From the sequence record OZ035795.1: a stretch of 64,000 bases of DNA. One strand, 5' to 3'. The notes beneath the pieces were generated by a model. It saw nothing but the letters and a program-made list of their open reading frames with translations. It had not been told where the DNA came from and did no database searches. The position numbers and the translations under genes are program-made. This stretch comes from Krischvirus LF73P4. This document shows positions 4,572 through 42,465 of the stretch, one piece after another; position 1 is the first letter of the stretch; each line of letters opens with the position of its first letter.

Positions 4572-4595
4572 GATTTTATTTTGGAGATTAATATT

Positions 4596-27164: not shown

Positions 27165-27175
27165 GAGGTGATATT

Positions 27176-27307
27176 ATGACTAAACTGACCGCTATCCAGA
27201 AAGAAACCATCCGTAAACAATACGCTCGCGGCTTGACTAAAGGCGAACTGGCACGAATCTATAATGTATCAGACCGCACAATCCGCAAGGTTGTAGAAGC
27301 AAAATAA
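27176..27307 (+). CDS. small helix-turn-helix protein (43 aa), resembles an rIIB N-terminal module
   Basis: AAGAGGTGA RBS; GLTKGELARIYNVSDRTIRKVV HTH-like segment. Confidence 0.45.
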   Translation: MTKLTAIQKETIRKQYARGLTKGELARIYNVSDRTIRKVVEAK

Positions 27308-27319
27308 TTCTGGTATAAT
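27291..27319 (+). promoter_or_regulatory. promoter candidate with extended -10 (TGgTATAAT) and weak -35 TTGTAG
   Basis: -10 at 27314-27319; GGGCG/CGCCC hairpin 27330-27347 in the leader. Confidence 0.4.
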
Positions 27320-27369
27320 GATGTGAATCGGGCGGCGATAGTCGCCCAACTAATAGAGGAATGAATACT

Positions 27370-28362
27370 ATGACTAAAGCAAAAATCACCGTCTCTGACC
27401 GTAACGTTCAATGCCTGGATTCTGCGAAACAAATCAAACTGGCTAAACAGTGGGGCGAAGGTAAGTTTACTACCCGCGAAGCACTTGCGGCAGCATTTGG
27501 TGTATCTCGTCGCACTGCCTCCCGTGTATTACTGATTCAGAAAGACGCAGTAGCGGAAGGTCGCAAGGCACTAGAAAAACGTAAAGCACGCCGTAAAACC
27601 AGTAAAGGAAAAGGCGGTGAACGCGCAAAAAAGCCCGTGACTACTTCCTCAAAAATCGTAGCCATAGCCTCAACTAAGTTTATTACTATTACATGTGGTG
27701 ACATTGTTTATACTGCTGATCCATCACATGTTAACTTTAATGAAGCACTGGAAGCGATTAAACATAATGATTTCATCAAAGCTATTACGCTGATTGACAT
27801 TAAGAAAGCGGTTGAAGTATATTATCACGGCGCTTTCCGTATCGAAAATGGTATTGTGTATTATCATAATATTGTTCTTGATAATAATCTGACTCGTCGA
27901 GTTGTGGAGTCGATTAAAGAGAATAAGCCATATACGCACTATCTGAACTTCTTTGAGAAGTGCAAGAAAAACCCTAGCCGTAAGGCCGTAGATCGTCTAT
28001 TTGACTTCTTAGAGCACAACGACATTGAGATCGTGGAAGATGGTTGTTTCTATGCATGGAAACGTGTTGATGTTGATTATAAAGATTTCTTTACGCATAC
28101 GTTTGATAATAGCCCAGGTCGCACGGTTAAAATGAAGCGTAAAGACGTGGACCCAGATGATGATCGCACTTGCTCTAATGGCCTCCACGTTGCAGCGAAA
28201 CACTATATTCCGCACTATGGCGGTGGACGAGGCCGAATCATTAAATGTAAAGTTGATCCGCGTCACGTTGTAAGTATCCCGAAAGATTATGCGAATGCCA
28301 AAATGCGCTGTCATCGTTACTATGTGGTTGAAGATGTAACCGAAGGTTTTAGCCATTACTAA
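27370..28362 (+). CDS. rIIB: rIIB protein
   Basis: 330 aa from ATG 27370; conserved C-terminal core matching T4 rIIB as recalled (KAVDRLFDFL...YVVEDVTEGF). Confidence 0.85.
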   Translation: MTKAKITVSDRNVQCLDSAKQIKLAKQWGEGKFTTREALAAAFGVSRRTASRVLLIQKDAVAEGRKALEKRKARRKTSKGKGGERAKKPVTTSSKIVAIASTKFITITCGDIVYTADPSHVNFNEALEAIKHNDFIKAITLIDIKKAVEVYYHGAFRIENGIVYYHNIVLDNNLTRRVVESIKENKPYTHYLNFFEKCKKNPSRKAVDRLFDFLEHNDIEIVEDGCFYAWKRVDVDYKDFFTHTFDNSPGRTVKMKRKDVDPDDDRTCSNGLHVAAKHYIPHYGGGRGRIIKCKVDPRHVVSIPKDYANAKMRCHRYYVVEDVTEGFSHY

Positions 28363-28376
28363 CAGAGGAATTAATT

Positions 28377-28703
28377 ATGGTTGATATGAAAGTTACTTGC
28401 GAAAGTGCACATGTTGAAGTTGAAAGTAGCCAATATTCATTGCGTCCGTCCGGTCGTGTTACTGTGACTATGGATGATGTTGATTTGGTTAATAATGTTA
28501 GTGTTGAAGATATCGTTAATGAGTATGATCATAGCGAACTGCTAGACGCAATTCCTGAACATGTTGTTATCCAGCACGTAGTAAGCAATAATGATCCATC
28601 GACTTTCATTAAAGAATATGGCGCTGATGAAATGCTCGATGAAATTGGCGAAAAGATTGTTATTGCATGGCTTGAAAACAACGGTTATACTGTAGAACAA
28701 TAA
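28377..28703 (+). CDS. highly acidic small protein (candidate DNA mimic)
   Basis: 108 aa with 23 D/E versus 5 K/R by my count. Confidence 0.5.
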   Translation: MVDMKVTCESAHVEVESSQYSLRPSGRVTVTMDDVDLVNNVSVEDIVNEYDHSELLDAIPEHVVIQHVVSNNDPSTFIKEYGADEMLDEIGEKIVIAWLENNGYTVEQ

Positions 28704-28710
28704 TCAACAT

Positions 28711-28734
28711 AGGCCGCTTTGCGCGGCCTTTCTT
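28711..28734 (+). terminator. rho-independent terminator
   Basis: AGGCCGC-tttgc-GCGGCCT hairpin followed by TTCTT. Confidence 0.5.
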
Positions 28735-28748
28735 AGAGGGAATACATT

Positions 28749-29042
28749 ATGACAGTCACGGTTATTACCAAATACGACGACGAAAATGTGATTTACGGTG
28801 ATGTGGTTGTTGTTCACGGTCGTAGCATGAAAGTTACTGGCAATTGTAAAGATGGTGCTATTATTTGCGGTGAATTGGTGAGAACAGTCAATCCTATCAC
28901 CGACGAACAAAAGCGAGTCATTATCAGAAAACTTAAAGACAGTGGATATTGTAACGTCGTGGTGATTCAAGAAAAAATTGAAGTAGGCCAATTATACACA
29001 AATCAGAAAACAATTCCGGTATCAATGGTTAAAGGCGGTTAA
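28749..29042 (+). CDS. hypothetical protein
   Basis: 97-aa ORF. Confidence 0.45.
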   Translation: MTVTVITKYDDENVIYGDVVVVHGRSMKVTGNCKDGAIICGELVRTVNPITDEQKRVIIRKLKDSGYCNVVVIQEKIEVGQLYTNQKTIPVSMVKGG

Positions 29043-29044
29043 TA

Positions 29045-29407
29045 ATGCTAGGTCATTCTAAAATAGAAGATTGCTCATTCAGAGCAATGAAAGATGATTT
29101 TTCGGTCCTGTACGCGTCTATCCGAGAGTTGTTTGTAGATTTTAAGCAATTCAGAGAATACAAAGGAGTTAAGATGCGGGAGTGGGTATTCTGGCCTTTC
29201 TATATCATTACTCTGTTTTCTATGGTATTTTGTTTTGTCGGGATCACTATCGCTAGTTTTGTCACTTGCGTTTTCCTGATTATCAGGTGTATCATGTTTG
29301 CTTTGATTGCTGCCCCGTTTATTGTGTCAATCCTTCCGTTAAAATGGCTATTGGATTGGGCTGATAAATCTGATAAAGTAAAGAATGTGATTTGTAAGCG
29401 TGTATGA
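29045..29407 (+). CDS. hypothetical membrane protein
   Basis: 120 aa with long hydrophobic segments. Confidence 0.5.
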   Translation: MLGHSKIEDCSFRAMKDDFSVLYASIRELFVDFKQFREYKGVKMREWVFWPFYIITLFSMVFCFVGITIASFVTCVFLIIRCIMFALIAAPFIVSILPLKWLLDWADKSDKVKNVICKRV

Positions 29408-29414
29408 GGTGAAG

Positions 29415-30761
29415 ATGAATAAATCAGTTACTTACCGCAGCCTTGAAAGCATTGTACATAATGAAGCTAAGGAATATGCGATCTATTCTGCCGAGGAACG
29501 CGGGATTCCTCAATTAGTAGATGGGCTTAAACCAGTGCAACGCTTTGTTATGGAATGTGCTTTGCAAAAGAGTAAAGGCGACCGTAAGAAATTCCGTAAG
29601 ATGGCAGATATTGGATCTGGTGTTGCTGAGTTGGGTTATCACCACGGGGAAACTAATGCCGTAGAAGCCGGATCACTCATGGCGAATACATGGAGCAATA
29701 ATACTCCACTGCTTGACGGTCAAGGTAACTTCGGATCTCGTTTAGTCCAGAAAGCAGGTGCAGCACGTTATATCTTTGCTCGTGTGCATGAAAACTTCTT
29801 TAAAATCTATAAAGATATGAATTGCGCACCTAAGCACGAAGATCTGGAACACATCCCGCCAGCGTTCTACTTGCCAGTTGTGCCAATGGTATTGGCTAAT
29901 GGTATTAGTGGTATTGCTACAGGGTATAAAACTGACATTTTACCGCATTCACTGGAAAGCCTCATTGAATGCACAGAGCTAGCACTTGCCGGAAAACTGG
30001 ATAAAGAACCTAGTGTTCAATTCCCGAAATTCACGGGTAAAGTTATCCCGCGAGATGATCGCGATGGTGTGATTCTTGAGGGTACATATGAACTAAACGG
30101 CAAGACTAAACTGACAATATCAGAAGTTCCTTATAAGTTCGACCGTGAAGAATATGTAGCGGTACTGGATGCACTGGAAGAAAAAGATCTGATTGTATCG
30201 TATAATGACCGTTGCTCTAAGGACGGATTCAGATTTGAAGTAACACTGAAACGCGATTATTTCAAAAGCGAAGATGAATCCGCTCGACATGAGCAAATCA
30301 TGAAGGATTTTAAACTAACGCAGTTAGTAGCCCAGAATATCGTAGTGGTTAATGAACGTGGTTTAGTAGAAGTATTCGAGAAAGCGAGCGATCTGATCCG
30401 TCGATTCGTCGAAATCCGATTAGGGTATGTTGATAAACGCATTGAATTGATGCAAGCGGAAACGCTGGAAGCATACAATTATGCAATGGCTAAAGCCGAA
30501 TTTATCGATCGCGTAATTAAGGGCGAAATCGAGCTACAGGGCAAGAAAAAGGCCGAGGTAATGCAATCCATCAATGGACATGAAAAACTGCGTCCATACG
30601 CCGATAAGCTAGTTTCTATGCCATTGTATAGCGTTACTCAAGAAGAGTATGATCGACTGGTCAAAGATGCCAATAAACATCATAGTGAATATGAGTATTG
30701 GACAAAGACGACAGCAATGAAGGAATATAAGAAAGATCTTAAAGAACTTAAGAAGGGTTGA
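29415..30761 (+). CDS. 52: DNA topoisomerase II medium subunit gp52 (GyrA-like)
   Basis: 448 aa from ATG 29415; conserved blocks (GLKPVQRF, GYHHGE, LLDGQGNFGSR) as in T4 gp52. Confidence 0.9.
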   Translation: MNKSVTYRSLESIVHNEAKEYAIYSAEERGIPQLVDGLKPVQRFVMECALQKSKGDRKKFRKMADIGSGVAELGYHHGETNAVEAGSLMANTWSNNTPLLDGQGNFGSRLVQKAGAARYIFARVHENFFKIYKDMNCAPKHEDLEHIPPAFYLPVVPMVLANGISGIATGYKTDILPHSLESLIECTELALAGKLDKEPSVQFPKFTGKVIPRDDRDGVILEGTYELNGKTKLTISEVPYKFDREEYVAVLDALEEKDLIVSYNDRCSKDGFRFEVTLKRDYFKSEDESARHEQIMKDFKLTQLVAQNIVVVNERGLVEVFEKASDLIRRFVEIRLGYVDKRIELMQAETLEAYNYAMAKAEFIDRVIKGEIELQGKKKAEVMQSINGHEKLRPYADKLVSMPLYSVTQEEYDRLVKDANKHHSEYEYWTKTTAMKEYKKDLKELKKG

Positions 30762-30967
30762 TTATGAAAGAATATCCAGAAGGCGGTTATATTGCATTTG
30801 TGTACAACAATAAAAAGATTGTGCCAATGGTCGTTGAGACTATGGAAGAAGCCAACCGGATCACTATTGAATCTCTGAATAAGTTAGCAGAGATAACAAA
30901 CACACCAGAACACAGAGCAACGATAGACTATTTGATGAAAGAATTTTTGGAGGGAAAGTATGACTGA
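30758..30967 (+). CDS. hypothetical protein
   Basis: 69-aa ORF. Confidence 0.45.
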   Translation: MIMKEYPEGGYIAFVYNNKKIVPMVVETMEEANRITIESLNKLAEITNTPEHRATIDYLMKEFLEGKYD

Positions 30968-31352
30968 ACGACGCATCACTTCAAATGGTTTGGGTACTCA
31001 TCATGCCTGGATGGTTAATCCAGACAAAAATCCTTATAAACTTTACGATACAACGATTAAACCGTGGAATAATGACGTATGGAAATCATCACCATCAATT
31101 AATCCGATGACTGATCCGAGACCGATTAGCCCAATGGCGGACCCAGTACAGATCAAGCCGTTGCCTTACCAGATAACGACGAATAGCATAGCCAACAAAC
31201 AAGAAAATGATATTGATATGATCTACGAGATGATTAAACTTTGGCGTGATGTTTATCTGGGTGTTCTATGCAACACAGATAAAAGTGCACATGCGGCAGC
31301 GGTGCTGGCATCTCATGCAGTAGACGAAGCCAAAAAGAAATTTAGTAAGTAA
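30960..31352 (+). CDS. hypothetical protein
   Basis: 130-aa ORF. Confidence 0.5.
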   Translation: MTERRITSNGLGTHHAWMVNPDKNPYKLYDTTIKPWNNDVWKSSPSINPMTDPRPISPMADPVQIKPLPYQITTNSIANKQENDIDMIYEMIKLWRDVYLGVLCNTDKSAHAAAVLASHAVDEAKKKFSK

Positions 31353-31361
31353 CTGACTATT

Positions 31362-31388
31362 AAGCCGATCCTTGTGGTCGGCTTTTTT
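31362..31388 (+). terminator. rho-independent terminator
   Basis: AAGCCGATC / GGTCGGCTT hairpin followed by TTTTTT. Confidence 0.55.
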
Positions 31389-31402
31389 ATTTGAAAAGTT
31401 GT

Positions 31403-31431
31403 TTGACTTCCATAATCCAGCATTGCATAAT
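31403..31431 (+). promoter_or_regulatory. sigma70-type promoter TTGACT-17-CATAAT
   Basis: -35 at 31403-31408, -10 at 31426-31431. Confidence 0.45.
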
Positions 31432-31462
31432 ACACACAGTGAAACAAAAAGGAGATTCAAAA

Positions 31463-31669
31463 ATGAAAGTACGTTGCATTGAAACAGATCACATCAATTA
31501 TAGCTTTAGTGTTGGGTGTGATTATGATGTTGATGTATTCACGGACAATAGCGGAAACACATTTGATGTAGTTCATGGTGACTATATTTGGTTTTACTTT
31601 GACAAACAACAACTTACTGCAACCAAACGAAACGGTGATCCGGTAGCAAAATTTGAAATAATCGAATAA
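31463..31669 (+). CDS. hypothetical protein
   Basis: 68 aa; GGAG 8 nt upstream of ATG 31463. Confidence 0.45.
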   Translation: MKVRCIETDHINYSFSVGCDYDVDVFTDNSGNTFDVVHGDYIWFYFDKQQLTATKRNGDPVAKFEIIE

Positions 31670-31675
31670 AGTCTA

Positions 31676-31710
31676 TTGACACCAGAACAAGGGAGTAGTA
31701 ACATACTCCC
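31676..31710 (+). promoter_or_regulatory. repeated promoter + stem-loop cassette, copy 1 (TTGACA-17-TAACAT; GGGAGTA/TACTCCC)
   Basis: -35 at 31676-31681, -10 at 31699-31704, inverted repeat 31691-31710. Confidence 0.5.
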
Positions 31711-31735
31711 ATACCAAACAAAAGGAGAATCAAAG

Positions 31736-32008
31736 ATGAACAACGAAAACAGCAAGGTGTTAGCAATTGCCGATAAAGTAGGTTACTGGAAATGCTGGGA
31801 TGATATGGAGAAATTAGGCGGTCGCTATCTCGATAACTTAGAGTTGCATTATTGCCAAGCGCGTAATGCAGAAGTTGCGGGAGTAGCAATCGAAGATATT
31901 CCGTCTAAAGTCTTCGGATTCTCTAAAGATGATACTCTAGAATATGTTTTCAAGGCTGTTATGGATCAAGCATGGGAAGACGCAGAGACACGCGCTCTTG
32001 ATTGGTGA
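31736..32008 (+). CDS. hypothetical protein
   Basis: 90 aa; AGGAG upstream. Confidence 0.45.
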   Translation: MNNENSKVLAIADKVGYWKCWDDMEKLGGRYLDNLELHYCQARNAEVAGVAIEDIPSKVFGFSKDDTLEYVFKAVMDQAWEDAETRALDW

Positions 32009-32012
32009 TAAT

Positions 32013-32183
32013 ATGAACTGGTATAAAATTTGGAAAAATCAGGTGGAGGCTTATCTAGGGTATAAGCCCACCGACGAAGAATTACTTGAAGCAATGTACG
32101 AAGACGGAATAAATCCGAAAGTAGCCGCGCAAGAATACGCGGAATGGATGAAGGTCGAAGATAACATAAAGGGGAAACTATGA
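32013..32183 (+). CDS. hypothetical protein
   Basis: 56-aa ORF. Confidence 0.35.
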   Translation: MNWYKIWKNQVEAYLGYKPTDEELLEAMYEDGINPKVAAQEYAEWMKVEDNIKGKL

Positions 32184-32380
32184 AGAAAATGATTGCAATT
32201 GCTTTGCTGGCTAGTGCATGTACTGTAAATGCTAATACCGCAGCGATGGTCGCGGCTGTAACTGCCGCAAATGCTTCCGTTATGGCATCGCAAGAGGCAG
32301 CACGCCAGCAAGCACAACAAGAAGCCCAGCGAAAAGCGCATGAGGCGACGAAAAAATTTCACGAAAATAACAAAAATTAG
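32180..32380 (+). CDS. small exported protein (signal peptide; possible lipoprotein)
   Basis: MKKMIAIALLASAC N-terminus; Ala/Gln-rich helical remainder. Confidence 0.45.
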   Translation: MKKMIAIALLASACTVNANTAAMVAAVTAANASVMASQEAARQQAQQEAQRKAHEATKKFHENNKN

Positions 32381-32415
32381 TTGACTCCAAAGGTCATCGG
32401 TAGTATTATACTCCC
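32381..32415 (+). promoter_or_regulatory. repeated promoter + stem-loop cassette, degenerate copy 2 (TTGACT-17-TATTAT)
   Basis: -35 at 32381-32386, -10 at 32404-32409, imperfect repeat ending TACTCCC 32409-32415. Confidence 0.45.
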
Positions 32416-32442
32416 ATACCGAAACGAACTGGAGGAATTAAA

Positions 32443-32685
32443 ATGGTTAAAGTTAATGTTATCGAAGTTGCACTGTATGACGCTGGTATCTTCCTGAATG
32501 AAAAAGAAGCTGCCGTTCTCGATGAACTGAAAACTGTTTTTGTTCCTGTAGTAGAAGACGTAGAAGCAATCAAAATCGCTTCTCGTAAACTGTCCCGCGA
32601 AGCATTCGATATGATTGATCCGGTTTTCAAAGTTATGCACGAATGCGCGGTTATGATGACCGAAGAAGAAGCGAAAAATTTCTAA
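32443..32685 (+). CDS. hypothetical protein
   Basis: 80-aa ORF; GGAGGA upstream. Confidence 0.45.
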   Translation: MVKVNVIEVALYDAGIFLNEKEAAVLDELKTVFVPVVEDVEAIKIASRKLSREAFDMIDPVFKVMHECAVMMTEEEAKNF

Positions 32686-32692
32686 AAACTAG

Positions 32693-32727
32693 TTGACGTA
32701 AAGATAAGGGAGTAGTAACATACTCCC
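32693..32727 (+). promoter_or_regulatory. repeated promoter + stem-loop cassette, copy 3 (TTGACG-17-TAACAT)
   Basis: -35 at 32693-32698, -10 at 32716-32721, inverted repeat 32708-32727. Confidence 0.5.
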
Positions 32728-32750
32728 ATACCAAACGAAAGGAGAATCAC

Positions 32751-32963
32751 ATGAAATCTATCGAGCAAGTAGTAACAGAGTTTATGAGCTACGAAGGAAA
32801 CCGCATCTTTGGACGTTCTCAAGTTCGCGAGATCGTAGAAGAAGTTGCGGGAGAGTTTGCGGAATCTGGTCACGTTATCACGCAAGAACGTAAAGAAGAA
32901 GCAGTAAGCCAGATCATGGCTATGCAGAAAATGCGTATTAATGCACGAGCGGGTAAAAATTAA
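32751..32963 (+). CDS. hypothetical protein
   Basis: 70-aa ORF; GGAG upstream. Confidence 0.45.
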   Translation: MKSIEQVVTEFMSYEGNRIFGRSQVREIVEEVAGEFAESGHVITQERKEEAVSQIMAMQKMRINARAGKN

Positions 32964-32973
32964 AAAATAGTTG

Positions 32974-33008
32974 TTGACACAGGATTAAGGGAGTAGTAAG
33001 ATACTCCC
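32974..33008 (+). promoter_or_regulatory. repeated promoter + stem-loop cassette, copy 4 (TTGACA-17-TAAGAT)
   Basis: -35 at 32974-32979, -10 at 32997-33002, inverted repeat 32989-33008. Confidence 0.5.
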
Positions 33009-33036
33009 ATCAAGACAAAACATTGAGGAATATATT

Positions 33037-33795
33037 ATGAAAAACATTATCGCTGCTATCGTTCTTTCCGCTACTGCTTTCGGTGCTAATGCTGCGTCCT
33101 TTGATTGCGCTAAAGCTACTACCAAATCAGAGAAGTTTATTTGTGCTAATGAGTCTATCTCCGCACTGGACTCTAAACTTCATGAAGTGTATGTTAAGGC
33201 TGTTAAGATTGATCCGTCTCTGAAACAAGAGCAACGAAACTGGAATAAAACTGTTCGTGATACAATGATCAATATCGGGCAGATTCAGCCACTGGAGGCT
33301 GTATACAACGCTCAAATCCAAAACTTGATGAATGTATTACCTAAAGAAGAAACCGCGTCAGAAAGCGATTCAGAGACTTCTGCGAAGGTTGAAGAAGAAC
33401 AACCGAAACAGGAAGCAAAAGTGGTAGAAGAACCGAAGGTCGAAACTTTTACCTATCAATGCACCGTTCGTTATGAGTGGAGTATGAAAGATGGAATTTC
33501 CACAAAAATTAAAGAAGCGCCACTGTATGCCAAATATGGAAATCAACCAGGAGATCTTAAAGTAACCATTAAAAATGGGAAGATGGTTGATTTTGTATAC
33601 ATTGATGAATACAACGTACACAAAGCAAACGTACAAGAAACCGTTATGACTAAAGGCGGGTTTTATAAGAATGTTGGCAAGAAAGATCTATATGAATACT
33701 CCGTTTTCGAACCAAACGACGGAACTATTCGATTCGAAAAACGTCATCCTACATTCGGTGGCGCAATTGATGTAGATCAATACGTTTGCAAGTAA
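33037..33795 (+). CDS. exported protein with DUF1311/LprI-like N-terminal domain
   Basis: Signal peptide ending ANA; FDCAKATT..EKFIC..ESISALDSKL..Y motif; acidic/lysine linker. Confidence 0.55.
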   Translation: MKNIIAAIVLSATAFGANAASFDCAKATTKSEKFICANESISALDSKLHEVYVKAVKIDPSLKQEQRNWNKTVRDTMINIGQIQPLEAVYNAQIQNLMNVLPKEETASESDSETSAKVEEEQPKQEAKVVEEPKVETFTYQCTVRYEWSMKDGISTKIKEAPLYAKYGNQPGDLKVTIKNGKMVDFVYIDEYNVHKANVQETVMTKGGFYKNVGKKDLYEYSVFEPNDGTIRFEKRHPTFGGAIDVDQYVCK

Positions 33796-33806
33796 GAGGT
33801 TAAATT

Positions 33807-34094
33807 ATGAAATTCAATAACATGAAGATCACAAAAGATTGGTGGGATGCGATGCGAGATACTCCAGAAACCAAATTGAATGAGACCACAACAACAATAC
33901 AAGTTGATTACGAAGATCCGAAAGACATATACAGAGAGATTTTAATCAGAGATCTTATAAAAGCTGGAAACTATCAAACACCAGATGGCCTTATTGACAT
34001 GATGGTTAAAGGTCTGTATAGTGGTAAAAATACAGATATTTTACCGTGGTACGAGGGATATTTTAAAACATATCGTGACCACAACCGAAAATAA
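33807..34094 (+). CDS. hypothetical protein
   Basis: 95-aa ORF. Confidence 0.45.
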   Translation: MKFNNMKITKDWWDAMRDTPETKLNETTTTIQVDYEDPKDIYREILIRDLIKAGNYQTPDGLIDMMVKGLYSGKNTDILPWYEGYFKTYRDHNRK

Positions 34095-34117
34095 TTTGTT
34101 GACGTGAGGATTATATT

Positions 34118-34309
34118 ATGGTAATTTTTAATCGTGATGGTATTATAGTTCGACAGCATCCATTCCTTGAATACTATCAGGTTGAACAATGGGGATATGG
34201 AGATTGCAACCGCTCATACGGTCAAAGCTGGGGATACCGTACAGTTTTTGAATCAACTAATATTGACAAAGTACGACAGAAAGTTTTAGAACTTCTTAAC
34301 GATAAGTGA
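34118..34309 (+). CDS. hypothetical protein
   Basis: 63-aa ORF; GAGGA upstream. Confidence 0.4.
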   Translation: MVIFNRDGIIVRQHPFLEYYQVEQWGYGDCNRSYGQSWGYRTVFESTNIDKVRQKVLELLNDK

Positions 34310-34319
34310 GGATTACATC

Positions 34320-34688
34320 ATGGAAATTCAAAACAATTACGAAAAATGTGTTATTATCAATGATTTGCAACGTCAATTGCATCATTACGAAACCGATTAT
34401 AAAACAGCAACCAAAACCGGAAAGTTGAAAGTGTGGGAAGTATGGTATAACCGAAACTATCTGGGAAGTATCCACAAACTTGATCGCAGTGATGTTTATA
34501 CAATGCATGTAGGCGCTTGTGGTGAATCGGATGTAGCATCTAATTTCATGGAAGCACTTGCATTCTATGTAGAATATCTGGTAGACTATATCGAGTTGGA
34601 AGAGGAAGTGGTAGAATTGCTTCCTCCACCGGAAGAAGCGCCGGAAGCAACGATCCTGAAAGCATTAAAGAAAATCTTTGTTAAGTGA
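34320..34688 (+). CDS. hypothetical protein
   Basis: 122-aa ORF. Confidence 0.45.
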   Translation: MEIQNNYEKCVIINDLQRQLHHYETDYKTATKTGKLKVWEVWYNRNYLGSIHKLDRSDVYTMHVGACGESDVASNFMEALAFYVEYLVDYIELEEEVVELLPPPEEAPEATILKALKKIFVK

Positions 34689-34696
34689 GGTGAACT

Positions 34697-35029
34697 ATGA
34701 AAAATGTACTGATTGTGTGGGAACTGATTCCAGAAACTACTGAATTATACATGGTACAGGTTGATAATAAAGAATTTGAAATTCTGAAACGCGTCAACTG
34801 CAAATATATTAACATTGATGACATGACCCCAGAAATGGACTATGTAAACTATGCTCTCATGCAGCCTAGTTGGATTATGGATGAAACCAAAGCAGACGCC
34901 GAATCGCTGGGTGTACCGGAAGAAGTATTAGCGAAATGGCATCAATTCAAAGTTGAAATAAAAGAGGGCGAACCGTTTATTCCTAGCGGTATGATCGATG
35001 CGGTGATCGTAACAGGTTTTCATCTGTAA
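34697..35029 (+). CDS. hypothetical protein
   Basis: 110-aa ORF. Confidence 0.45.
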   Translation: MKNVLIVWELIPETTELYMVQVDNKEFEILKRVNCKYINIDDMTPEMDYVNYALMQPSWIMDETKADAESLGVPEEVLAKWHQFKVEIKEGEPFIPSGMIDAVIVTGFHL

Positions 35030-35041
35030 GGAGATTATACA

Positions 35042-35374
35042 ATGTTTAACTATGACAAATATGAATCATGGAAAGCGACCGAATTGAAAGAGGCAGCGCG
35101 GTTAATCACACCGCGTCTTTATCCGGTGTTGTTTAGCGCCGATAAAGTAACAAGGGAAGTAAACGAGGCGCTATCGGTTTTAGGCTATCTGATCGATAAA
35201 GTAGAGAAAACATCGGTATTCACAAATAGCGTAGAATATACCCGGTATCGAGTGTTTTTAGATTCCTTGCTCGTTGTCATTAAAGCACTAAATGATCATA
35301 ACTACACCATGAACATGACGAAAATAATCGACGAAGCAAGAATTATGACAGAGAATATTTTCGGTAAATTTTGA
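35042..35374 (+). CDS. hypothetical protein (paralog of 35489-35812)
   Basis: 110 aa; C-terminus ...DEARIMTENIFGKF matches neighbour's ...NDARKLAENVYGKF. Confidence 0.5.
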   Translation: MFNYDKYESWKATELKEAARLITPRLYPVLFSADKVTREVNEALSVLGYLIDKVEKTSVFTNSVEYTRYRVFLDSLLVVIKALNDHNYTMNMTKIIDEARIMTENIFGKF

Positions 35375-35488
35375 TTATGAAAGATGATGAATCATTGAAA
35401 ATTGCACTGGTTATGCTATTACAAGGTATAGAATTAGCAAACCACGAAAAAATGTTGACACAACAGCGTGAAATTATGAGAGGTGATT

Positions 35489-35812
35489 ATGATCGAGTTT
35501 GAAATTGACAACTTTCACGAAAAAGCAGAAGACTTAACCAAAATTTTGATTAGTCGAGGTGCATATAATACGAAAGATATTATAAAAGAAGTTAATGTAG
35601 CGATGGACGCGATCCAAAAGGAATTTAAACATATTTCAGCGATTGGAGAAAATGGTCATCTTGAAGATGTTGAGCTGGTAGCACTGCGACGCTATTACTT
35701 CTTTGTTGATTGCATCATTGATCTAGCTAAAAATTATAGTCATTACATGAAAGATATTGTAAACGATGCACGTAAGTTGGCAGAGAATGTTTACGGGAAG
35801 TTTCCAGAATGA
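35489..35812 (+). CDS. hypothetical protein (paralog of 35042-35374)
   Basis: 107 aa; GAGG upstream of ATG 35489. Confidence 0.5.
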   Translation: MIEFEIDNFHEKAEDLTKILISRGAYNTKDIIKEVNVAMDAIQKEFKHISAIGENGHLEDVELVALRRYYFFVDCIIDLAKNYSHYMKDIVNDARKLAENVYGKFPE

Positions 35813-36057
35813 AATTAGAACAAGCGATTGTATACTTTGAGATGGGCTATGATATTGCTCGTGTAGAGTGGGAAGATGGTGATTTTGTCCGATTGATTGA
35901 TCTTCCAGAAACAGCTATTGCACTGGTCAAAGTAGAAAACGGCATACAACGAAATTACGCGTTTTCTGACGAAGACAAACAAGCCGATGACTGGTACGCT
36001 ACATGTTTTCATCATACAGCGTCAAAATGCGATTCAGGCGCGTCTATGCGTCAATAA
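35809..36057 (+). CDS. hypothetical protein
   Basis: 82-aa ORF. Confidence 0.45.
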   Translation: MKLEQAIVYFEMGYDIARVEWEDGDFVRLIDLPETAIALVKVENGIQRNYAFSDEDKQADDWYATCFHHTASKCDSGASMRQ

Positions 36058-36069
36058 ATGCGTCAATAA
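36046..36069 (+). repeat. perfect 12-bp tandem duplication ATGCGTCAATAA x2
   Basis: Read directly; duplicates last three codons plus stop of ORF 35809-36057. Confidence 0.8.
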
Positions 36070-36103
36070 AAAAGAAGGGGAGGCCGAAAGGCTTCCCCTT
36101 TAA
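36068..36103. terminator. bidirectional terminator between convergent early block and holin t
   Basis: AAGGGGAGGCC-gaaa-GGCTTCCCCTT hairpin flanked by A-run (5') and T-rich (3'). Confidence 0.6.
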
Positions 36104-36104
36104 G

Positions 36105-36761
36105 TTATCTAATCCTTCCGAGGATTCTGGCAGATTGATTGCAAAGAGTATCTAAATTCTCAATGTCAATATCCGGTTTATTCTTCCATGCAATGGAGAT
36201 ACTACCAGAATAGACATTATCGAGATTGAATATAGGGCAAGAATACATAAACCCTATATCGATACTCTCTAATTTCTTTTCTCTTGATGGAATATACTGG
36301 AAATCTTTATCGGTAAAATATGATTTACCTAAAAGATGCCTACGATATTCTTCACTCGTTTTATTGATAGGGAATCCGCCTAAATTTTTTTCATCGATTG
36401 TATGCGGTAACTTTCCTTCATATGCCACCAAATCAACAAAATAGTTTAGGTTTTTCGGACGAAAACTAAAAACAGCAGAAAAATCGGCATCAGCCGACAC
36501 ATGAACTATCTGTAACTGCTCCTGTGCTGCATTATCAAAATTGCGGTCTTTCTCTACCTGGAGAACGTGAGCATAAGTCTCATAACGAGTCTCTTTATAA
36601 AGCGCAAATAACTCGTTTTTACTATAAACGACAAATGCTAATATAGACAACACGACGGCAGCAAAAACACGAAGTACGAGCAACTCCGTGCTTTTAGTTG
36701 TGAAAATAGCGCGCAGGACATTTGAGATAGCAAAGTCTTTCCCTTTTTCAGAAACTTGCAT
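36105..36761 (-). CDS. t: holin T (lysis protein t)
   Basis: 218 aa, same length and strong similarity to T4 holin as recalled (LQIVHVSADADFSAVFSFRPKNLNYFVD...). Confidence 0.9.
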   Translation of the reverse strand: MQVSEKGKDFAISNVLRAIFTTKSTELLVLRVFAAVVLSILAFVVYSKNELFALYKETRYETYAHVLQVEKDRNFDNAAQEQLQIVHVSADADFSAVFSFRPKNLNYFVDLVAYEGKLPHTIDEKNLGGFPINKTSEEYRRHLLGKSYFTDKDFQYIPSREKKLESIDIGFMYSCPIFNLDNVYSGSISIAWKNKPDIDIENLDTLCNQSARILGRIR

Positions 36762-36794
36762 ATAATGCCCTAAGATAACTATGACAGTGTACTC

Positions 36795-37034
36795 TTATTT
36801 AGGTAGTTGACTATCACTATTTTTATTTTGCTCGTTGCTATCTTCTGACTGATCTTTATTAAACTCCTTATAAAGTTCTTCCACAAAACGATCATCAATT
36901 GGCGTATTGGTATAAGCCGCAAGACGACGAGCGCAATAGAAGAAAATTTTAGTGAGCATCTTTTCACTAATTAACTTTGACAATAGTTTCATTCCGAAAT
37001 TAGACAAAGCACCAATGACGATATTATAGACCAT
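36795..37034 (-). CDS. hypothetical protein between adhesin and holin
   Basis: 79 aa; AAGGAG 8 nt upstream of ATG; hydrophobic N-terminus, acidic tail. Confidence 0.5.
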   Translation of the reverse strand: MVYNIVIGALSNFGMKLLSKLISEKMLTKIFFYCARRLAAYTNTPIDDRFVEELYKEFNKDQSEDSNEQNKNSDSQLPK

Positions 37035-37097
37035 AGCCGTTTCTCCTTAGTAGTTCCCTTCCGTGGGAGTTTTCCTTAATTCTTTTTATAATTGCGT

Positions 37098-37880
37098 CTA
37101 AACAGCCGGTCCGTAAATAGCTCCGCGATTTTGCCACGTTGGAGAAGACCCTATAACAGCATATCCAGAATCGCCGCCATTATATTCAGATCCTTGACCA
37201 CGAATATTACATCTACCTCCTGCGGCGCCTACCTCACCACCGCTTCCACCATTATAGATACCGTTCACGGACCCCGAACCGGGCGCATAAAGAGTACCAG
37301 CAGTTGCGCCTGATTGCATATCAATAGATCCGCCCGGCGCACCAAACGGACGCCCACCGCCACCGCCAAAGGTTAATCTCATTTGTGAAAAAGGAGAATA
37401 ATACCCGCCACCGCCACCGCCACCGCCACCTGCAATAGCTCCACCATTATTAATTCTTAGTCTCCCACCAATATCATTTTGAATACAATGCCCCCCGGCT
37501 GATCCAGGACCATTGCTACCGCCATTCCCGCCACGACCATACATCGTTACGCCATGTATATTCAACTGAACATATTCATTCGGTGTATCTCCGTACATAA
37601 AGAATAAAGGAACATCTTTAGAATATGATACTAAATCTCCAGTGATATTAAACACTATAGGTGTACTACCTGCTTCAAAGCATCTATCACGGAACCACTG
37701 ACCGTTGAAGTTATGGTCTGCACCAAGTGTATGAATAATTTCTCGCGAGCGACCTGCAAATTGACTCATCCAGCAAGGAACACCCAATCTTAATTGACCA
37801 GCCGCTTGACTCATCCATCGTTGTCCTGTTTCATTTGCGGCTGAACTTCCAATCCAACCAGGAACACCAACTACTGCCAT
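37098..37880 (-). CDS. 38: long tail fibre tip adhesin gp38 (T2-type, glycine-rich motifs)
   Basis: 260 aa; conserved N-terminal domain then poly-Gly runs separated by variable segments. Confidence 0.9.
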
Positions 37881-37893
37881 AATTTATACTCCA

Positions 37894-37912
37894 AAGGGGG
37901 CAACGCCCCCTT
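37894..37912 (-). other. tight stem-loop AAGGGGGC-aac-GCCCCCTT between gene 37 and gene 38
   Basis: Perfect 8-bp inverted repeat with 3-nt loop. Confidence 0.4.
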
Positions 37913-37916
37913 GTTG

Positions 37917-40697
37917 TTAGAATTTAAAATATTTACTAATTTTGCGAGCAATTTTAGTAAAGAAAGGAGTTTTCAATTCTTTAATTTCTTCACTCATTTC
38001 CTGAATAGCCTTAATTAAAAGAGCATTCACTGCCGAGTTAGAAATTGTCAGAACATCAGATCCATCAACTTCAACTTTAGATACAGCTTCCGGCAATTCT
38101 TTTTCAAGATCCTGAGCAATAATACCAGCTTCACGTTTAATCACACTACGATCTTTAATAGACTTAACTTTATCGTAAGTATAAACTTTCAGACGGCATA
38201 CTTTTTCAAGTGCTCCGTTTTCTAACTCTTCTTTATTAATCTTAAGACGGGAGTCAGAACGAATATACACATCGCTAAAGCTACCATTTCCTGGTGTATA
38301 AAAGAACCCATCATGATGGAATTCAAACACAGCTTGTGGGTGTCCAGCATCAGGAGAAGCCTCCGTGGATCCGACACGAATGATTGCTTGCCCCCACTGT
38401 GATGGAATACGACGCATACCAAAGTCAACAGCGGTGCTATATCCTTGATTGGTTATAACGCTTCTTGCTTTAAGAATAGGATAATAACTATCTTGACCAA
38501 CATAACCATGATCAACGAATAATGGAGCTTCTACTCGCCATTGGTTGCCCCAATCACCTGGTTGTCTGGCAACCCAACTTGCACCATTGATATACATACG
38601 ATCGCGGTTAACGTTAACCATTAAGGTATTTTGCGGGTTTAAAGATATCTCGCCAGAATTTGTAATATAAATTGCAGAATTACTAGCATAACTAAAAAAC
38701 CCTAATCCGTTATCAGCGCCTCCTTTCCCTATATACCAATTATTATTACCATCACAACTACCCAACAAATAAACCGAATCTCCAGATGACGGAGCATTCA
38801 AAACTATTGCGTCCGAACCACGATTAACAGTTATTTTATCGGAAGATTCTATTTGACCAAAGAATTTAGTTTTAATTGCACCAGTCGCTAAAGTACGTTC
38901 AGTGGAAAAATGAGCGCCTTTGCTATCTTCTAACTGAATAATGTTATCACGAGCGTTATTGCTATCACCCCAATGGTTAAATTTAAAATAATCTCGTGAT
39001 CCTAAACGTCCGGCGTCAAAAGTCATCAAGCCTTTCATGTTAATATCACCACCAAAAAATGCGGTGAGAGAATCACGTTTTAATTTTAAAACGTTAGCAC
39101 CACTAGTACCACCCAAAGTAACATCACCAGTTCTTAATTCATAACGGAAAGGTCTATTTGTATTAAAGTTTCCATCTTGATCATTTTCGTCGGTGGAAAG
39201 AATATAAAGACTCTCTCCATCATTACGTAAAAATGCACCAAATTTTCCGCCATACATACGGAATGCATTCAACGAGCGGAATTTAACTTCTGTTTTAAAT
39301 GTGGTAGTGTTATTAAGGTTAACAGTAGAGTTAAAGTTAACTGCGCCATTAAAATCTTGTTTAGCAGTCCAAGTATGTGATCCGTCTTCAAGAACAACAC
39401 GGCGAACTGTACAAGTTCTATTTCCCGGATTACCAGCAACACGAACGACAAAATAACGGTAGTTTGTCTGGGATACAGTACCACGCCAAACCTGAACAGT
39501 ACGCCCTGTGCCAGTGTGTTCGCTAGGACCGACAGAAAACATAACCAAGTTTCCGTCAATCGCACCCCAATCCATATTTGCTGGCATGTTCTTTATTTTG
39601 TTCAAAGGAACACTAAACATACTACCAGGGACAAAATCAAAGGTTTGCCAGTCTAGCTCCGCTAATTGAGATTTAACACCACCCATACCCAGAGTGATCG
39701 GCATAGAATAGGACGTATATACTTCGTACCAATTTCCCCAGATGTTATTTGTCATCGCACGTTCAAACACGCGAGATCGCGTAGTTGCACCCGTTCCTGC
39801 GGTAGTGAAACGTTGGAAAATAGCGGCACCGGAAGCACGCTGTTTAACCTCAAGCAATCCGGTCATCTCAACCGGAACACCTTCTGCAACTGGACGGTTA
39901 ATAACGGCATCAGTCCCTAAAATGTTATACAAGCCAGGAGAACGAAAATTATTAAGATCCCCGTCATAGAATGTGTTTGGAGTAACCATACCTACTTGTT
40001 GCCACGGTCCCCAATTCGGAGCTTCTGGATCCCATGCACCAGCAAGACAACGAACATATACAACACCCATTCGGGTAGTATAACGTTGCGTGCGAGAATA
40101 GTTACCACCTTCATAAATTTCTAAAAGACCTTGCGCGAGACCACCTTCTTCTGGGTAATTTCGAGAAAATGATGCAATGGAACTTAAACTATTTCGCCAT
40201 AACCCAAAATGAGAAGCATCACCTAAAGTATTCAAGTCTAGTGTAGTTGATAGTGGACGTGTGCCAGTTTGAATATTGCGCCACGGACCCCATGGACCAT
40301 CTACGCCATTCCATTTAGCAGACAAAGAACGGATATAAACGTTACCAGACCGAACAGTATAACGCTGAGTGCCAGCAAATTGACCAGCCACAAATACTTC
40401 TAATACACCTACAGCATTCTCTTCTGGGAATTTATTTGCTGGCTGCGCATTTGTTGAAGTTGATTTAGACCAAACGCCAGTAAATTTACCAGTAGGTCCA
40501 TAATTATCTAAATTTGCATCAGATGGCAACTCACCGCGAAAGTGTCCCAAAGTAATTACATTATTGCTGTCATCTTTTGTATATAGTTCTCGATCCGCTA
40601 GGTTAATAGCAAGTTCACCCGGAGTTAGAATATTCGCATCCGGCTTGCGACCTGCCGTACTTGTTCTTTTAAATTGGATTCTCTGTAAATCTGCCAT
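37917..40697 (-). CDS. 37: long tail fibre distal subunit gp37, with C-terminal intramolecular-chaperone-like segment
   Basis: 926 aa; N-terminus QRIQFKRTSTAG...GELAINL like T4 gp37; SDSRLK motif about 113 aa from C-terminus. Confidence 0.9.
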   Translation of the reverse strand: MADLQRIQFKRTSTAGRKPDANILTPGELAINLADRELYTKDDSNNVITLGHFRGELPSDANLDNYGPTGKFTGVWSKSTSTNAQPANKFPEENAVGVLEVFVAGQFAGTQRYTVRSGNVYIRSLSAKWNGVDGPWGPWRNIQTGTRPLSTTLDLNTLGDASHFGLWRNSLSSIASFSRNYPEEGGLAQGLLEIYEGGNYSRTQRYTTRMGVVYVRCLAGAWDPEAPNWGPWQQVGMVTPNTFYDGDLNNFRSPGLYNILGTDAVINRPVAEGVPVEMTGLLEVKQRASGAAIFQRFTTAGTGATTRSRVFERAMTNNIWGNWYEVYTSYSMPITLGMGGVKSQLAELDWQTFDFVPGSMFSVPLNKIKNMPANMDWGAIDGNLVMFSVGPSEHTGTGRTVQVWRGTVSQTNYRYFVVRVAGNPGNRTCTVRRVVLEDGSHTWTAKQDFNGAVNFNSTVNLNNTTTFKTEVKFRSLNAFRMYGGKFGAFLRNDGESLYILSTDENDQDGNFNTNRPFRYELRTGDVTLGGTSGANVLKLKRDSLTAFFGGDINMKGLMTFDAGRLGSRDYFKFNHWGDSNNARDNIIQLEDSKGAHFSTERTLATGAIKTKFFGQIESSDKITVNRGSDAIVLNAPSSGDSVYLLGSCDGNNNWYIGKGGADNGLGFFSYASNSAIYITNSGEISLNPQNTLMVNVNRDRMYINGASWVARQPGDWGNQWRVEAPLFVDHGYVGQDSYYPILKARSVITNQGYSTAVDFGMRRIPSQWGQAIIRVGSTEASPDAGHPQAVFEFHHDGFFYTPGNGSFSDVYIRSDSRLKINKEELENGALEKVCRLKVYTYDKVKSIKDRSVIKREAGIIAQDLEKELPEAVSKVEVDGSDVLTISNSAVNALLIKAIQEMSEEIKELKTPFFTKIARKISKYFKF

Positions 40698-40741
40698 TTT
40701 ATAAAATCCTTAACGGTTGTTAGAATAATATTATTTAGAAA

Positions 40742-40760
40742 AGCGGGGATTATCCCCGCT
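40742..40760 (-). terminator. stem-loop AGCGGGGA-tta-TCCCCGCT, partial terminator/attenuator between gp36-like gene and gene 37
   Basis: 8-bp perfect inverted repeat; short U-run follows on - strand. Confidence 0.4.
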
Positions 40761-40764
40761 AGAA

Positions 40765-42255
40765 TTAGAAAGTACCAAAATCAATTACCGCATTAAGCGG
40801 AACAGCGCCAACATCATCAGGAGTTGGTTTGTGTCCTTCGTGGTATAATTCAAATGTATCGGTGTCCTGAGTATTGTTGCGTGATTTAACGAAAATAATT
40901 TTAGAATCATGTGTGATGCCTAGTTTCTCGTGCGCTTTAATATCACTAACACGATGAATCATTGCTGTGCCATCTAAGCTATTAAGTCCAGCGTAGCAAT
41001 TATCACCATTATAGTTAGCTTTTGCGGTACGAACGCCGTTTGCAGCGGGAACTGTCAAAGCACCTCTCATGGTATCGCCAGTCACATTAACATAGCGAGC
41101 ATCAGCCAATTTACGGTGATCTACATAGTTCCATGCGGTCCATGATTCATTAGAACAAGAACGCCAGCACATCGGATGATCAATAGATTCAGGATAGTAT
41201 ACCTGAACAATTCGACGAGTACCGACCGCATCTTCTGGGCGATATACCATCAAAACGCCGTTATAATAGCTATCAGACGGTTTATTAGTACCTGATCCAG
41301 CATTTTCCACACGATAGATACCGCGATTAATAAGAGTGTTCCAATCAACGTTTCCAATGATTGTTGGATTTGCTACCATTGATTTTTTCTCAAAGTAGCT
41401 CAAACGAACCAATTCATTAGGACCAGCAGGATCGTTTGTCGCCAACATTCTAGGCGCTTGCAAGTTACCTTCCATAATATCACCAGCACGTTTAACCTGT
41501 GCATCATTGGTGACATTACCTAGTCCAACATCGGCTTTAGTCGGTTTATTGTTGGTGTGGTAGAATCTACCTGCCTTGCCATTAACAGAAATTGTCGGCT
41601 CGTTTTTGCTACTGAATGCCAAAGTATCAAGACTATTTCCAAAATAAATGGCATTAGAATCGAAAGCAATGAAACCACGATCCCGCGCAAGTATTTTCGA
41701 ATTAACATCAAGTTTAAATGTAGCCGTGTTTAAATTATACGTTCCCGTGAGAGTATCACCGCGACGAGACACCAAATCCAAATCATTGTTTGTCGGCTTA
41801 TTAACAGGACTATAGACGCGTTGACCAGTGTCTTTAATGGTTGTCCCTTCGATGGTCCCTTTAGTTTTAAAATCACCTGTGGTAGTGTCAATATAAGCCA
41901 TGATAACATCATCACGAGCATTAACAAAACCAATAGATTTCCACGAATGCAAACCCCAACTTACACCATCAAAGTTAGCCGCATCGCTCTTTCCTTTAAA
42001 GATCCCGTTCTTTTTGGTTTCTCCACCGGATGCGCTACCTACGCTTAAACCTTCCTCAAAATGGACCAGTTTCTGAAATGTACCACCCTCAGATGCACTA
42101 ACAGCATCAAAATCGGCAGCCGAAGGTTTATCAAAAGCGGTATAGATTTTATGACCTTTATAGAAAAGCTGATCACCCGCTGGCTGGATCGTCAAGTTTC
42201 CTTGCGTCCAAATGGGAGATCCGCCTACAGTAGATCCATGTTTCAAATCTGCCAT
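40765..42255 (-). CDS. 36: long tail fibre hinge/connector protein, gp36-like (enlarged)
   Basis: 496 aa; N-terminus MADLKHGSTVGGSPIWTQGN...PAGD resembles T4 gp36; directly upstream of gene 37. Confidence 0.6.
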   Translation of the reverse strand: MADLKHGSTVGGSPIWTQGNLTIQPAGDQLFYKGHKIYTAFDKPSAADFDAVSASEGGTFQKLVHFEEGLSVGSASGGETKKNGIFKGKSDAANFDGVSWGLHSWKSIGFVNARDDVIMAYIDTTTGDFKTKGTIEGTTIKDTGQRVYSPVNKPTNNDLDLVSRRGDTLTGTYNLNTATFKLDVNSKILARDRGFIAFDSNAIYFGNSLDTLAFSSKNEPTISVNGKAGRFYHTNNKPTKADVGLGNVTNDAQVKRAGDIMEGNLQAPRMLATNDPAGPNELVRLSYFEKKSMVANPTIIGNVDWNTLINRGIYRVENAGSGTNKPSDSYYNGVLMVYRPEDAVGTRRIVQVYYPESIDHPMCWRSCSNESWTAWNYVDHRKLADARYVNVTGDTMRGALTVPAANGVRTAKANYNGDNCYAGLNSLDGTAMIHRVSDIKAHEKLGITHDSKIIFVKSRNNTQDTDTFELYHEGHKPTPDDVGAVPLNAVIDFGTF

Positions 42256-42288
42256 AAAGTAACCTCAAAAATTAGTTATAGTTCCGAG

Positions 42289-42296
42289 TATTTATA
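42289..42296 (-). promoter_or_regulatory. T4-type late promoter box TATAAATA
   Basis: Exact TATAAATA on - strand, 33 nt upstream of gp36-like ATG. Confidence 0.55.
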
Positions 42297-42465
42297 GAAT
42301 GTTAACAAAATATCGCTTCGCGACGTGCCGTAGGCACTGACTACTTTTTAACCGAAACAAATTTTCTATTATTCTAAAGATCTTTCTTCGTTTTGGTTAT
42401 GTTTTAACCAATAACTATATTTTTATACAGTAATAAATAAAACGGGTACTATACGAGGACTTCTT

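Follow-up and report, generated by a model that had tools for sequence, protein, structure and literature searches.

The LprI protein of Mycobacterium tuberculosis (Rv1541c; Sethi et al. 2016) combines a DUF1311 domain with an MliC domain, and the MliC domain is sufficient for lysozyme resistance (PMC7933661). Another DUF1311 protein, ScwA of Salmonella, is free in the periplasm, controls the levels of MltD and causes lysis on overproduction, and its authors remark that the Pfam name is without experimental support for the LprI domain itself (PMC7933661). Proteins with a signal peptide and an LprI domain are also encoded right after lysozyme-like, LysM/transglycosylase and pesticin-type effectors of type VI secretion systems (T6SS) in Pantoea, Salmonella Dublin and enterohaemorrhagic Escherichia coli (EHEC). 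They are real or predicted immunity partners of these effectors and occur as orphan immunity genes as well, and the DUF1311 protein Etsi4 of EHEC rescues the toxicity of periplasmic Etse4. Here we describe a gene of Krischvirus LF73P4 (sequence record OZ035795.1), found in a window of 64,000 nucleotides (nt) that was read on one strand and whose positions are used throughout. The gene, an open reading frame (ORF) at 33037..33795 on the plus strand, codes for an LprI-type domain followed by a β-barrel that exists in many alleles. We propose tentatively, and with somewhat less than an even chance of being right, that the product is a polymorphic periplasmic protein that inhibits peptidoglycan hydrolases coming from outside, or binds them as an immunity protein would, with a role in superinfection exclusion or immunity. 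That the protein has a DUF1311 domain is not new, as public databases already label the RB49 copy (UniProt Q7Y3G7) "LprI-like N-terminal domain", and RefSeq calls those of E. coli "lysozyme inhibitor LprI family protein". Novel points are the modelled fold of the barrel and the cysteine pair at its ends, the parallel to the architecture of LprI, the intragenic cassette polymorphism, and an N-terminal module that is common to virulent and temperate phages.

The window belongs to an RB49-like Krischvirus, and many isolates match it at 97-98% identity. The ORF starts with ATG and gives a product of 252 amino acids (aa), and its listed translation is identical to the sequence quoted in the first-pass annotation of this stretch; the ORF listing of the region holds no long competing ORF on either strand. 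It corresponds to RB49p262/ORF262, a "hypothetical protein" in the RB49 annotation. Because it is conserved in 58 Krischvirus records, with a low ratio of nonsynonymous to synonymous divergence (dN/dS), we take it with confidence to be a real gene under selection.

The first-pass annotation had described a Sec signal peptide, a DUF1311/LprI-type domain, an acidic and lysine-rich linker and a second domain, transcribed from an early promoter, and all of these are upheld by the analysis. The signal peptide has a lysine at position 2, a hydrophobic core at residues 4-16 (mean Kyte-Doolittle value 2.3) and the cleavage motif ANA/AS. A lipobox cysteine is absent (the cleavage region reads FGANA/ASF, with no Cys at +1), and hydrophobic segments were looked for beyond the signal peptide and none was seen. 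Two distant homologues, one from Klebsiella phage VAC36 and one from the lambdoid phage ev099, have the AxA/ASFDC junction too, and the predicted mature protein has 233 aa, a mass of 26.5 kDa and a pI of 5.6. The LprI family PF07007 matches aa 24-76 with 25.8 bits (E 1.4e-5, model positions 1-71 of 106), above the gathering cut-off of 22 bits, and it independently matches distant homologues, the scores of homologues being 23.3-26.4 bits. The first cysteine pair of the domain (C-x11-C), C24/C36, is invariant in 13 of 13 aligned homologues and is found also in VAC36 and ev099. In the full-length AlphaFold2 (AF2) model, made from the alignment of 13 sequences, four helices lie at residues 30-98 (confidence score, pLDDT, 63-81) and the C-terminal domain is all-beta (pLDDT 85-92). 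Residues 104-131 score below 50 and are predicted to be disordered; they belong to a linker with 12 D/E, 5 K/R, 3 P and 6 S/T among its residues.

Sequence searches of the PDB with the full protein and with a profile of the N-terminal domain returned nothing at E up to 10, and a word-index search with this domain alone gave no candidates. A profile of four N-domain sequences found 28 small single-domain DUF1311 proteins with uninformative names; a PADLOC scan of the protein gave a weak match to PDC-S13 (E 0.004-0.012), and an NCBIfam scan gave no match above cut-off. PHROGs assigns the entire protein to phrog_14799 and its N-terminal half to phrog_4675, two families annotated without a function.

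The C-terminal domain is modelled with confidence as a small up-and-down β-barrel: when it was modelled alone the pLDDT was 88 and the pTM 0.80, with eight long strands and one short. A search with the domain against PDB sequences gave no match at E up to 10, and its profile found among 1.84 billion representative proteins its own family and two giant repeat proteins, nothing else. The P0021 match in this search was read as a PKD-like repeat protein with a short W-x-x-x-DG motif in common, and was rejected as spurious. Foldseek against the PDB gave weak matches, all with E above 1e-3, to the NHBA, fHbp and TbpB barrels and to lipocalins. In a further structural comparison certain matches had root-mean-square deviations of 2.4-2.9 Å, among the lowest in its list. 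What lifts the barrel above a generic fold match is its terminal cysteine pattern. Cys6 of the domain lies in the strand at 2-15 and Cys115 in that at 108-115 (Cys142 and Cys251 of the protein), and both are invariant across all allele classes, including those that are otherwise unalignable; the putative disulfide between C142 and C251 would tie the first strand to the last. A disulfide between β1 and β8 is a conserved feature of MliC, PliC, ACP and PhiA (PMC5507604; PMC8334348), and the modelled barrel with its terminal cysteine pair thus appears to bear the hallmark of these lysozyme-inhibitor barrels.

The two halves of the gene have had different histories. In the alignment of 13 homologues residues 1 to about 120 are almost invariant, while the remainder is hypervariable except for C142, G153 and C251. 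Compared as DNA with Phi1, JSE and two copies from E. coli chromosomes, the gene is 92-100% identical between its ATG and about nt 400 (window position 33437); past this point the identity drops to 30-55% over the barrel and the greater part of the following ORF, and it recovers at about 34092. The alignments thus place a recombination boundary at about 33437, in the linker region. Synonymous (dS) and nonsynonymous (dN) divergence was calculated according to Nei-Gojobori, with the first 120 codons as the N-terminal part. These codons have a dS of 0.07-0.22, and a dN/dS of 0.03-0.13 for pairs with the window gene, Phi1-P0013 and JSE-EcE275, with other pairs reaching 0.27. The barrel has a dS of 0.41 in the closest pair and from 1 to saturated in the others, with a dN/dS of 0.16-0.39. 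Because such a high dS goes together with this dN/dS, the barrels are best seen as old, functionally constrained alleles and not as fast-evolving copies, and the N-terminal module looks much younger, or continually homogenised by recombination. This mosaic pattern holds whatever the function may be. Synonymous divergence differs about ten-fold from one half of the gene to the other, and the mosaic is common to virulent and temperate phages.

By pairwise comparison there are at least eight barrel classes. Four occur in Krischviruses (the RB49, Phi1, P0005/P0007 and JSE types) and three in prophages (the H2, P0013 and E275 types), with P0020 as a further class; each prophage class is nearest to a different Krischvirus class, at merely 43-56% identity. 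When type A and type B barrels were compared with hhalign, the first strand alone was aligned, at a probability of 4.7%, and we infer their common ancestry solely from the terminal Cys/Tyr pattern that they share. Two possible associations of the barrel allele were considered and ruled out. It is not linked to the type of the downstream ORF, which is similar in Phi1 and JSE where the barrels differ, nor to the tip of the tail fibre, since the window and RB49 proteins are 99.6% identical and the distal fibres dissimilar. A locus of recognition or immunity would be expected to look like this, with ancient alleles of a C-terminal domain on a recently shared N-terminal module.

The same gene is found in temperate phages. 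Single chromosomal copies are present in 26 of 5426 complete E. coli genomes, their first 371-408 nt being 94-97% identical to the window, and no copy was found among the GTDB species representatives. In each of three E. coli loci that were inspected, the gene closes a prophage of about 35 kb and lies next to a truncated hicB: the prophage is inserted in the 3' end of this antitoxin gene, and hicA is intact (13013-13324 in locus L002, 12988-13296 in L003). A hypothetical gene that adjoins the prophage copy looks, from its sequence, like a small terminase subunit. IMG/VR holds nine prophage contigs of 23-36 kb with the gene at the contig end, and two T4-like contigs. Promoter-like and terminator-like sites, which are consensus matches only, flank the prophage copy, and this gives it a moron-like appearance, as a putative promoter-gene-terminator unit at the extreme prophage end, which is the usual position of lysogen-protecting genes. 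Downstream of the E. coli H2 copy lies a remnant of 25 codons of the Krischvirus downstream ORF (MKFNSMKITKDWWDAM...), which argues that at least the H2 allele moved from a Krischvirus-like phage to a temperate phage. The GC content was considered as an indicator of the direction of transfer and ruled out, the prophage arm being likewise at about 40% GC.

An N-terminal module of the same kind, about 40% identical and with its signal peptide and ASFDC motif, heads two-domain proteins elsewhere whose C-terminal domains are unrelated. The Klebsiella Marfavirus VAC36 has an LprI fusion of 250 aa near genes 41, sp and 61, and the lambdoid phage ev099 has one of 232 aa between an ea22-like gene and xis; the N-terminal LprI region alone matches further Klebsiella records and Aeromonas T4-like phages. 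Among the phages examined here an LprI module with a variable C-terminal domain thus appears to be a recurrent arrangement. The LprI-barrel gene itself is limited to Krischvirus among the T4-like phages of E. coli. A homologue of the T4 protein Spackle (gp61.3), which is present in 927 other phage records, is absent from the whole RB49 genome and from the window, where the best tblastn match has E 0.049 and lies inside gene 41.

Several of these observations lead us to favour a hydrolase inhibitor. The protein has an export signal and no membrane anchor, LprI proteins are real or predicted partners of T6SS effectors that are peptidoglycan hydrolases, the barrel fold and its terminal cysteines resemble MliC, PliC, ACP and PhiA, and the order of DUF1311 and barrel mirrors that of M. 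tuberculosis LprI. RB49 is without Spackle and the LprI-barrel gene is confined to Krischvirus, the allele pattern fits a locus of recognition or immunity, the gene sits at a prophage end, apparently captured there together with a putative promoter and terminator, and the early block holds also a Tad2-like anti-defence gene. We hypothesize that early in infection the protein would be exported by Sec, cleaved after Ala19 and released as a soluble periplasmic protein of two domains, with one likely disulfide in the LprI domain and one in the barrel, and with the flexible acidic linker between them. There it would bind and inhibit, stoichiometrically, peptidoglycan hydrolases that arrive from outside, candidates being the tail lysozymes that superinfecting phages bring, T6SS effectors of the muramidase type, and bacteriocins. 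The infected cell, or the lysogen in the case of the prophage copies, would then be shielded from lysis from without, as by Spackle in T4. In this picture the N-terminal domain, itself invariant, would recognise something that does not vary, and the specificity for the target would come from the barrel, of which a set of old alleles is maintained and recombined onto the constant module.

Several results weigh against such a function. ScwA gives no protection against lysozyme (PMC7933661), and since this is so, and since the MliC domain suffices for the activity of LprI, a DUF1311 match alone is weak evidence for lysozyme inhibition. The N-terminal domain covers just two thirds of PF07007, with model positions 72-106 unaligned, and it lacks the second cysteine pair: the only cysteines of the protein are 24, 36, 142 and 251, whereas four conserved cysteines are reported for ScwA-type LprI members (PMC7933661). 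The C-terminal domain alone matches none of the Pfam families at E up to 10, MliC (PF09864) included. The inhibitory motifs of MliC, SxSGAxY in loop 4 and YxxxTKG in strand 6, are absent from the barrel; TKG is present in the RB49 allele alone (VMTKGG), without the Tyr and unconserved elsewhere, and there is no SGxxY. ACP, though, inhibits lysozyme with both motifs missing (PMC5507604). PhiA, the best match of inhibitor type, showed no in vitro inhibition of its proposed target (PMC8334348). No hydrolase or effector gene adjoins the LprI gene, its neighbours being small ORFans in the phage and the terminase-like gene and the hicB site in the prophage. Finally, in VAC36 (locus L011) a gene annotated as Spackle (1607-1921) and the LprI fusion (4001-4753) form a pair within 2.4 kb in the gene 41-61 region. 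Spackle-like and LprI-fusion genes thus coexist in Klebsiella Marfaviruses and are not simple alternatives. The protector role, similar to that of Spackle, which the first-pass annotation had suggested is plausible and has circumstantial support in the missing Spackle of RB49, the T6SS immunity partners and the barrel fold, but the part of it that was drawn from the DUF1311 match does not stand by itself. Absent from that annotation were the features that tell most about the gene, namely the barrel fold of the second domain, its extreme allelic polymorphism and the prophage copies.

The constancy of the N-terminal domain would also suit a conserved host partner, and one could think of a modulator like ScwA, with a DUF1311 domain that would bind or stabilise host lytic transglycosylases or other murein enzymes and so tune envelope remodelling, lysis timing or lysis inhibition. 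The free periplasmic ScwA with its control of MltD and its lysis of overproducing cells is a precedent (PMC7933661), and about 2.3 kb separate the LprI gene from that of the t holin. Host enzymes are conserved, however, and the many ancient alleles of the C-terminal domain would be left unexplained; lysis control in RB49 is already provided for by rI, t and rIIA/B, and ScwA is a different, all-helical protein with its LprI domain at the C-terminus (PMC7933661). We consider such a modulator quite unlikely.

Of equally low probability, in our opinion, is that the barrel stops superinfection without inhibiting any enzyme, by binding the periplasmic face of an outer-membrane receptor or a component of the injection channel. 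The T5 Llp and the Cor proteins, which are lipid-anchored, block superinfection by binding in the envelope. The LprI-barrel protein is, as predicted from its sequence, exported and early, the prophage copies are at the prophage end, polymorphism could follow that of envelope proteins, and the structural neighbours of the barrel include the protein-binding surface-lipoprotein barrels fHbp, TbpB and NHBA. The protein is nevertheless without a lipid anchor, unlike Llp or Cor, and its allele does not track receptor specificity, because it is nearly identical in the window and in RB49 despite a different distal tail-fibre region (37088-40592). A calycin-like barrel that binds a small molecule or lipid of the periplasm, such as an isoprenoid, a lipid or a signalling nucleotide, is improbable, since a conserved pocket would be expected whereas type A and type B barrels are without profile similarity past the first strand, and since the diversity of alleles suits protein targets better.

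If the protein does inhibit hydrolases from outside, Krischviruses counter lysis from without and superinfection with a protein that is unrelated to Spackle, the architecture of mycobacterial LprI with DUF1311 and a barrel also serves phages, and the swapping of alleles decides which competitors an infected cell or a lysogen withstands. A widespread phage family labelled "unknown" (PHROGs 14799 and 4675) would thereby acquire a function. A bolder version, which we think rather unlikely, is that the gene is a specificity-determining immunity locus common to virulent T4-like and temperate E. coli phages, where the LprI module is homogenised and is joined to one out of at least eight ancient barrels under balancing selection, each of which would neutralise different hydrolases (phage tail lysozymes, T6SS or bacteriocin muramidases). 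In Krischvirus it would then take over the function of Spackle, and it would be the first inhibitor of the type DUF1311 plus MliC-like barrel to be phage-borne and to swap cassettes.

The features of the gene and of its upstream region are collected in the table. In RB49 and phi1 the hyperplastic regions are populated by promoter-early stem-loop (PeSL) cassettes (PMC2839356, Arbiol et al. 2010), and the element upstream of the LprI gene fits these, being a repeated unit of a sigma-70-like promoter and a stem-loop. The early promoter that had been claimed for the gene is thus supported, as a sigma-70-type promoter-like site with a PeSL stem-loop. The window has three copies of the stem-loop GGGAGTAGTAAGATACTCCC (at 31691, 32708 and 32989) against none expected. 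The copies, at 31691-31710, 32708-32727 and 32989-33008, share the stem-loop GGGAGTAGTAA(C/G)ATACTCCC, and each has its -10 hexamer within the loop and a TTGAC(A/G) -35 placed 17 nt upstream. The same arrangement of promoter and stem-loop is seen at 31676 and 32693, upstream of neighbouring ORFs.

Table. Position of the LprI-barrel gene parts and upstream signals in the window
Feature	Position	Strand	Basis or remark
Sigma-70-type early promoter, TTGACA-17 nt-TAAGAT	32974..33002	+	10/12 consensus matches
PeSL stem-loop GGGAGTAGTAAGATACTCCC, 7-bp perfect stem, -10 hexamer in loop	32989..33008	+	overlaps promoter
Shine-Dalgarno GAGGA, 7 nt before ATG	33025..33029	+	sequence inspection
Predicted Sec (signal peptidase I) signal peptide, aa 1-19, MKNIIAAIVLSATAFGANA/AS	33037..33093	+	motif and hydropathy
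LprI/DUF1311-like domain, predicted helical, aa 20-100, C24/C36 pair, nearly invariant	33094..33336	+	Pfam, AF2
Predicted disordered acidic/Lys/Pro-rich linker, aa 101-136	33337..33444	+	composition, AF2
Predicted polymorphic 8-9-stranded β-barrel, aa 137-252, RB49 allele class, Cys142 in first and Cys251 in last strand, stop included	33445..33795	+	

Some observations were made on the surroundings of the gene. Directly downstream, the ORF of 95 aa at 33807-34094 (+) is itself mosaic, its first 17 codons (MKFNNMKITKDWWDAM) being kept in RB49, Phi1 and JSE and the rest replaced between phages; its product lacks a signal peptide and matches no Pfam family. An ORF of 82 aa at 35809-36057 (+), just upstream of the t holin gene, matches the Tad2-like family PF11195 with 27.9 bits (cut-off 25, E 3.4e-6) and is a possible anti-Thoeris sponge in Krischvirus. 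Because this Tad2-like gene lies 2 kb downstream of the LprI gene, the early block can be said to carry putative conflict genes. On the other side, an ORF of 66 aa at 32180-32380 (+) begins with MKKMIAIALLASACTVNANTAAM..., which is signal-peptide-like with a possible lipobox-like ASAC, and ends in a tail rich in Ala and Gln; it has no Pfam match, and its product may be a second small exported protein of the early block.

Further away, the distal long-tail-fibre or adhesin region at 37088-40592 (-) has no megablast similarity to RB49 while its flanks are 97% identical, which suggests a swap of the receptor-binding module. The window matches RB49 in two parts, 27165-42411 running against RB49 164018 to 150000 in reverse and 42302-64000 following 62775-84460 in the forward direction. 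Their overlap of about 110 bp (42302-42411) resembles an inverted repeat, and the junction there is contiguous in none of the 58 Krischvirus GenBank records. Either some 87 kb are inverted with respect to RB49, or the assembly is chimeric at the repeat.

Compared with known systems, the modelled barrel falls in the same fold class as MliC, PliC, ACP and PhiA, with eight antiparallel strands and cysteines in the first and last of them. It differs in having no sequence similarity to them, with no PDB or Pfam match even at E 10, one extra short strand and the fusion to DUF1311, and its inhibitor role would follow by analogy; the motifs SxSGAxY and YxxxTKG that it lacks are likewise absent in ACP and PhiA. 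With LprI of M. tuberculosis it shares export and the order of an N-terminal DUF1311 and a small C-terminal domain, MliC there and the barrel here. LprI, however, is a lipoprotein, while the phage protein has a signal peptidase I site and no lipobox, a long acidic linker, high polymorphism and a barrel without the Pfam match or the motifs of MliC. That it may work like an inhibitor of the two-domain LprI type we infer from this analogy.

The DUF1311 immunity proteins of T6SS (Etsi4, the predicted Pantoea Psi15 and orphans, and SED_RS06230 of Salmonella Dublin) also have a signal peptide and DUF1311, and they are periplasmic antagonists of cell-wall effectors and often orphan genes that move horizontally. 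They are single-domain proteins of about 120-150 aa encoded beside their effector, in contrast to the two-domain phage protein with no adjacent effector; Etsi4 (ECs_0213) has a sub-threshold LprI match of 18.8 bits, and a comparison of it with the phage protein gave no significant similarity. Spackle resembles the LprI-barrel protein in being small, exported and produced early by a T4-like phage, and the role we propose would be alike (neutralisation of tail lysozyme, superinfection exclusion and resistance to lysis from without). It is however a single domain of 97 aa with a different sequence, not homologous (tblastn E above 0.04) and not cassette-polymorphic.

The closest in overall layout are the PHROG 4675-type proteins of VAC36 and ev099, which have the signal peptide, the ASFDC...LprI domain, a charged linker and a C-terminal domain, and which occur, as the LprI-barrel gene does, in both virulent T4-like and temperate phages; their C-terminal domains are without sequence relation to the Krischvirus barrel. 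The PeSL-flanked ORFan cassettes of RB49 and phi1, finally, also lie in a hyperplastic region with a PeSL 5' of the gene. The point of exchange in the LprI gene, in contrast, is not at the PeSL but falls within the coding region, at about nt 400 where the linker is encoded, so that half a gene is swapped instead of a whole ORFan, and this is a clean case of intragenic module exchange across the virulent and temperate lifestyles of phages.

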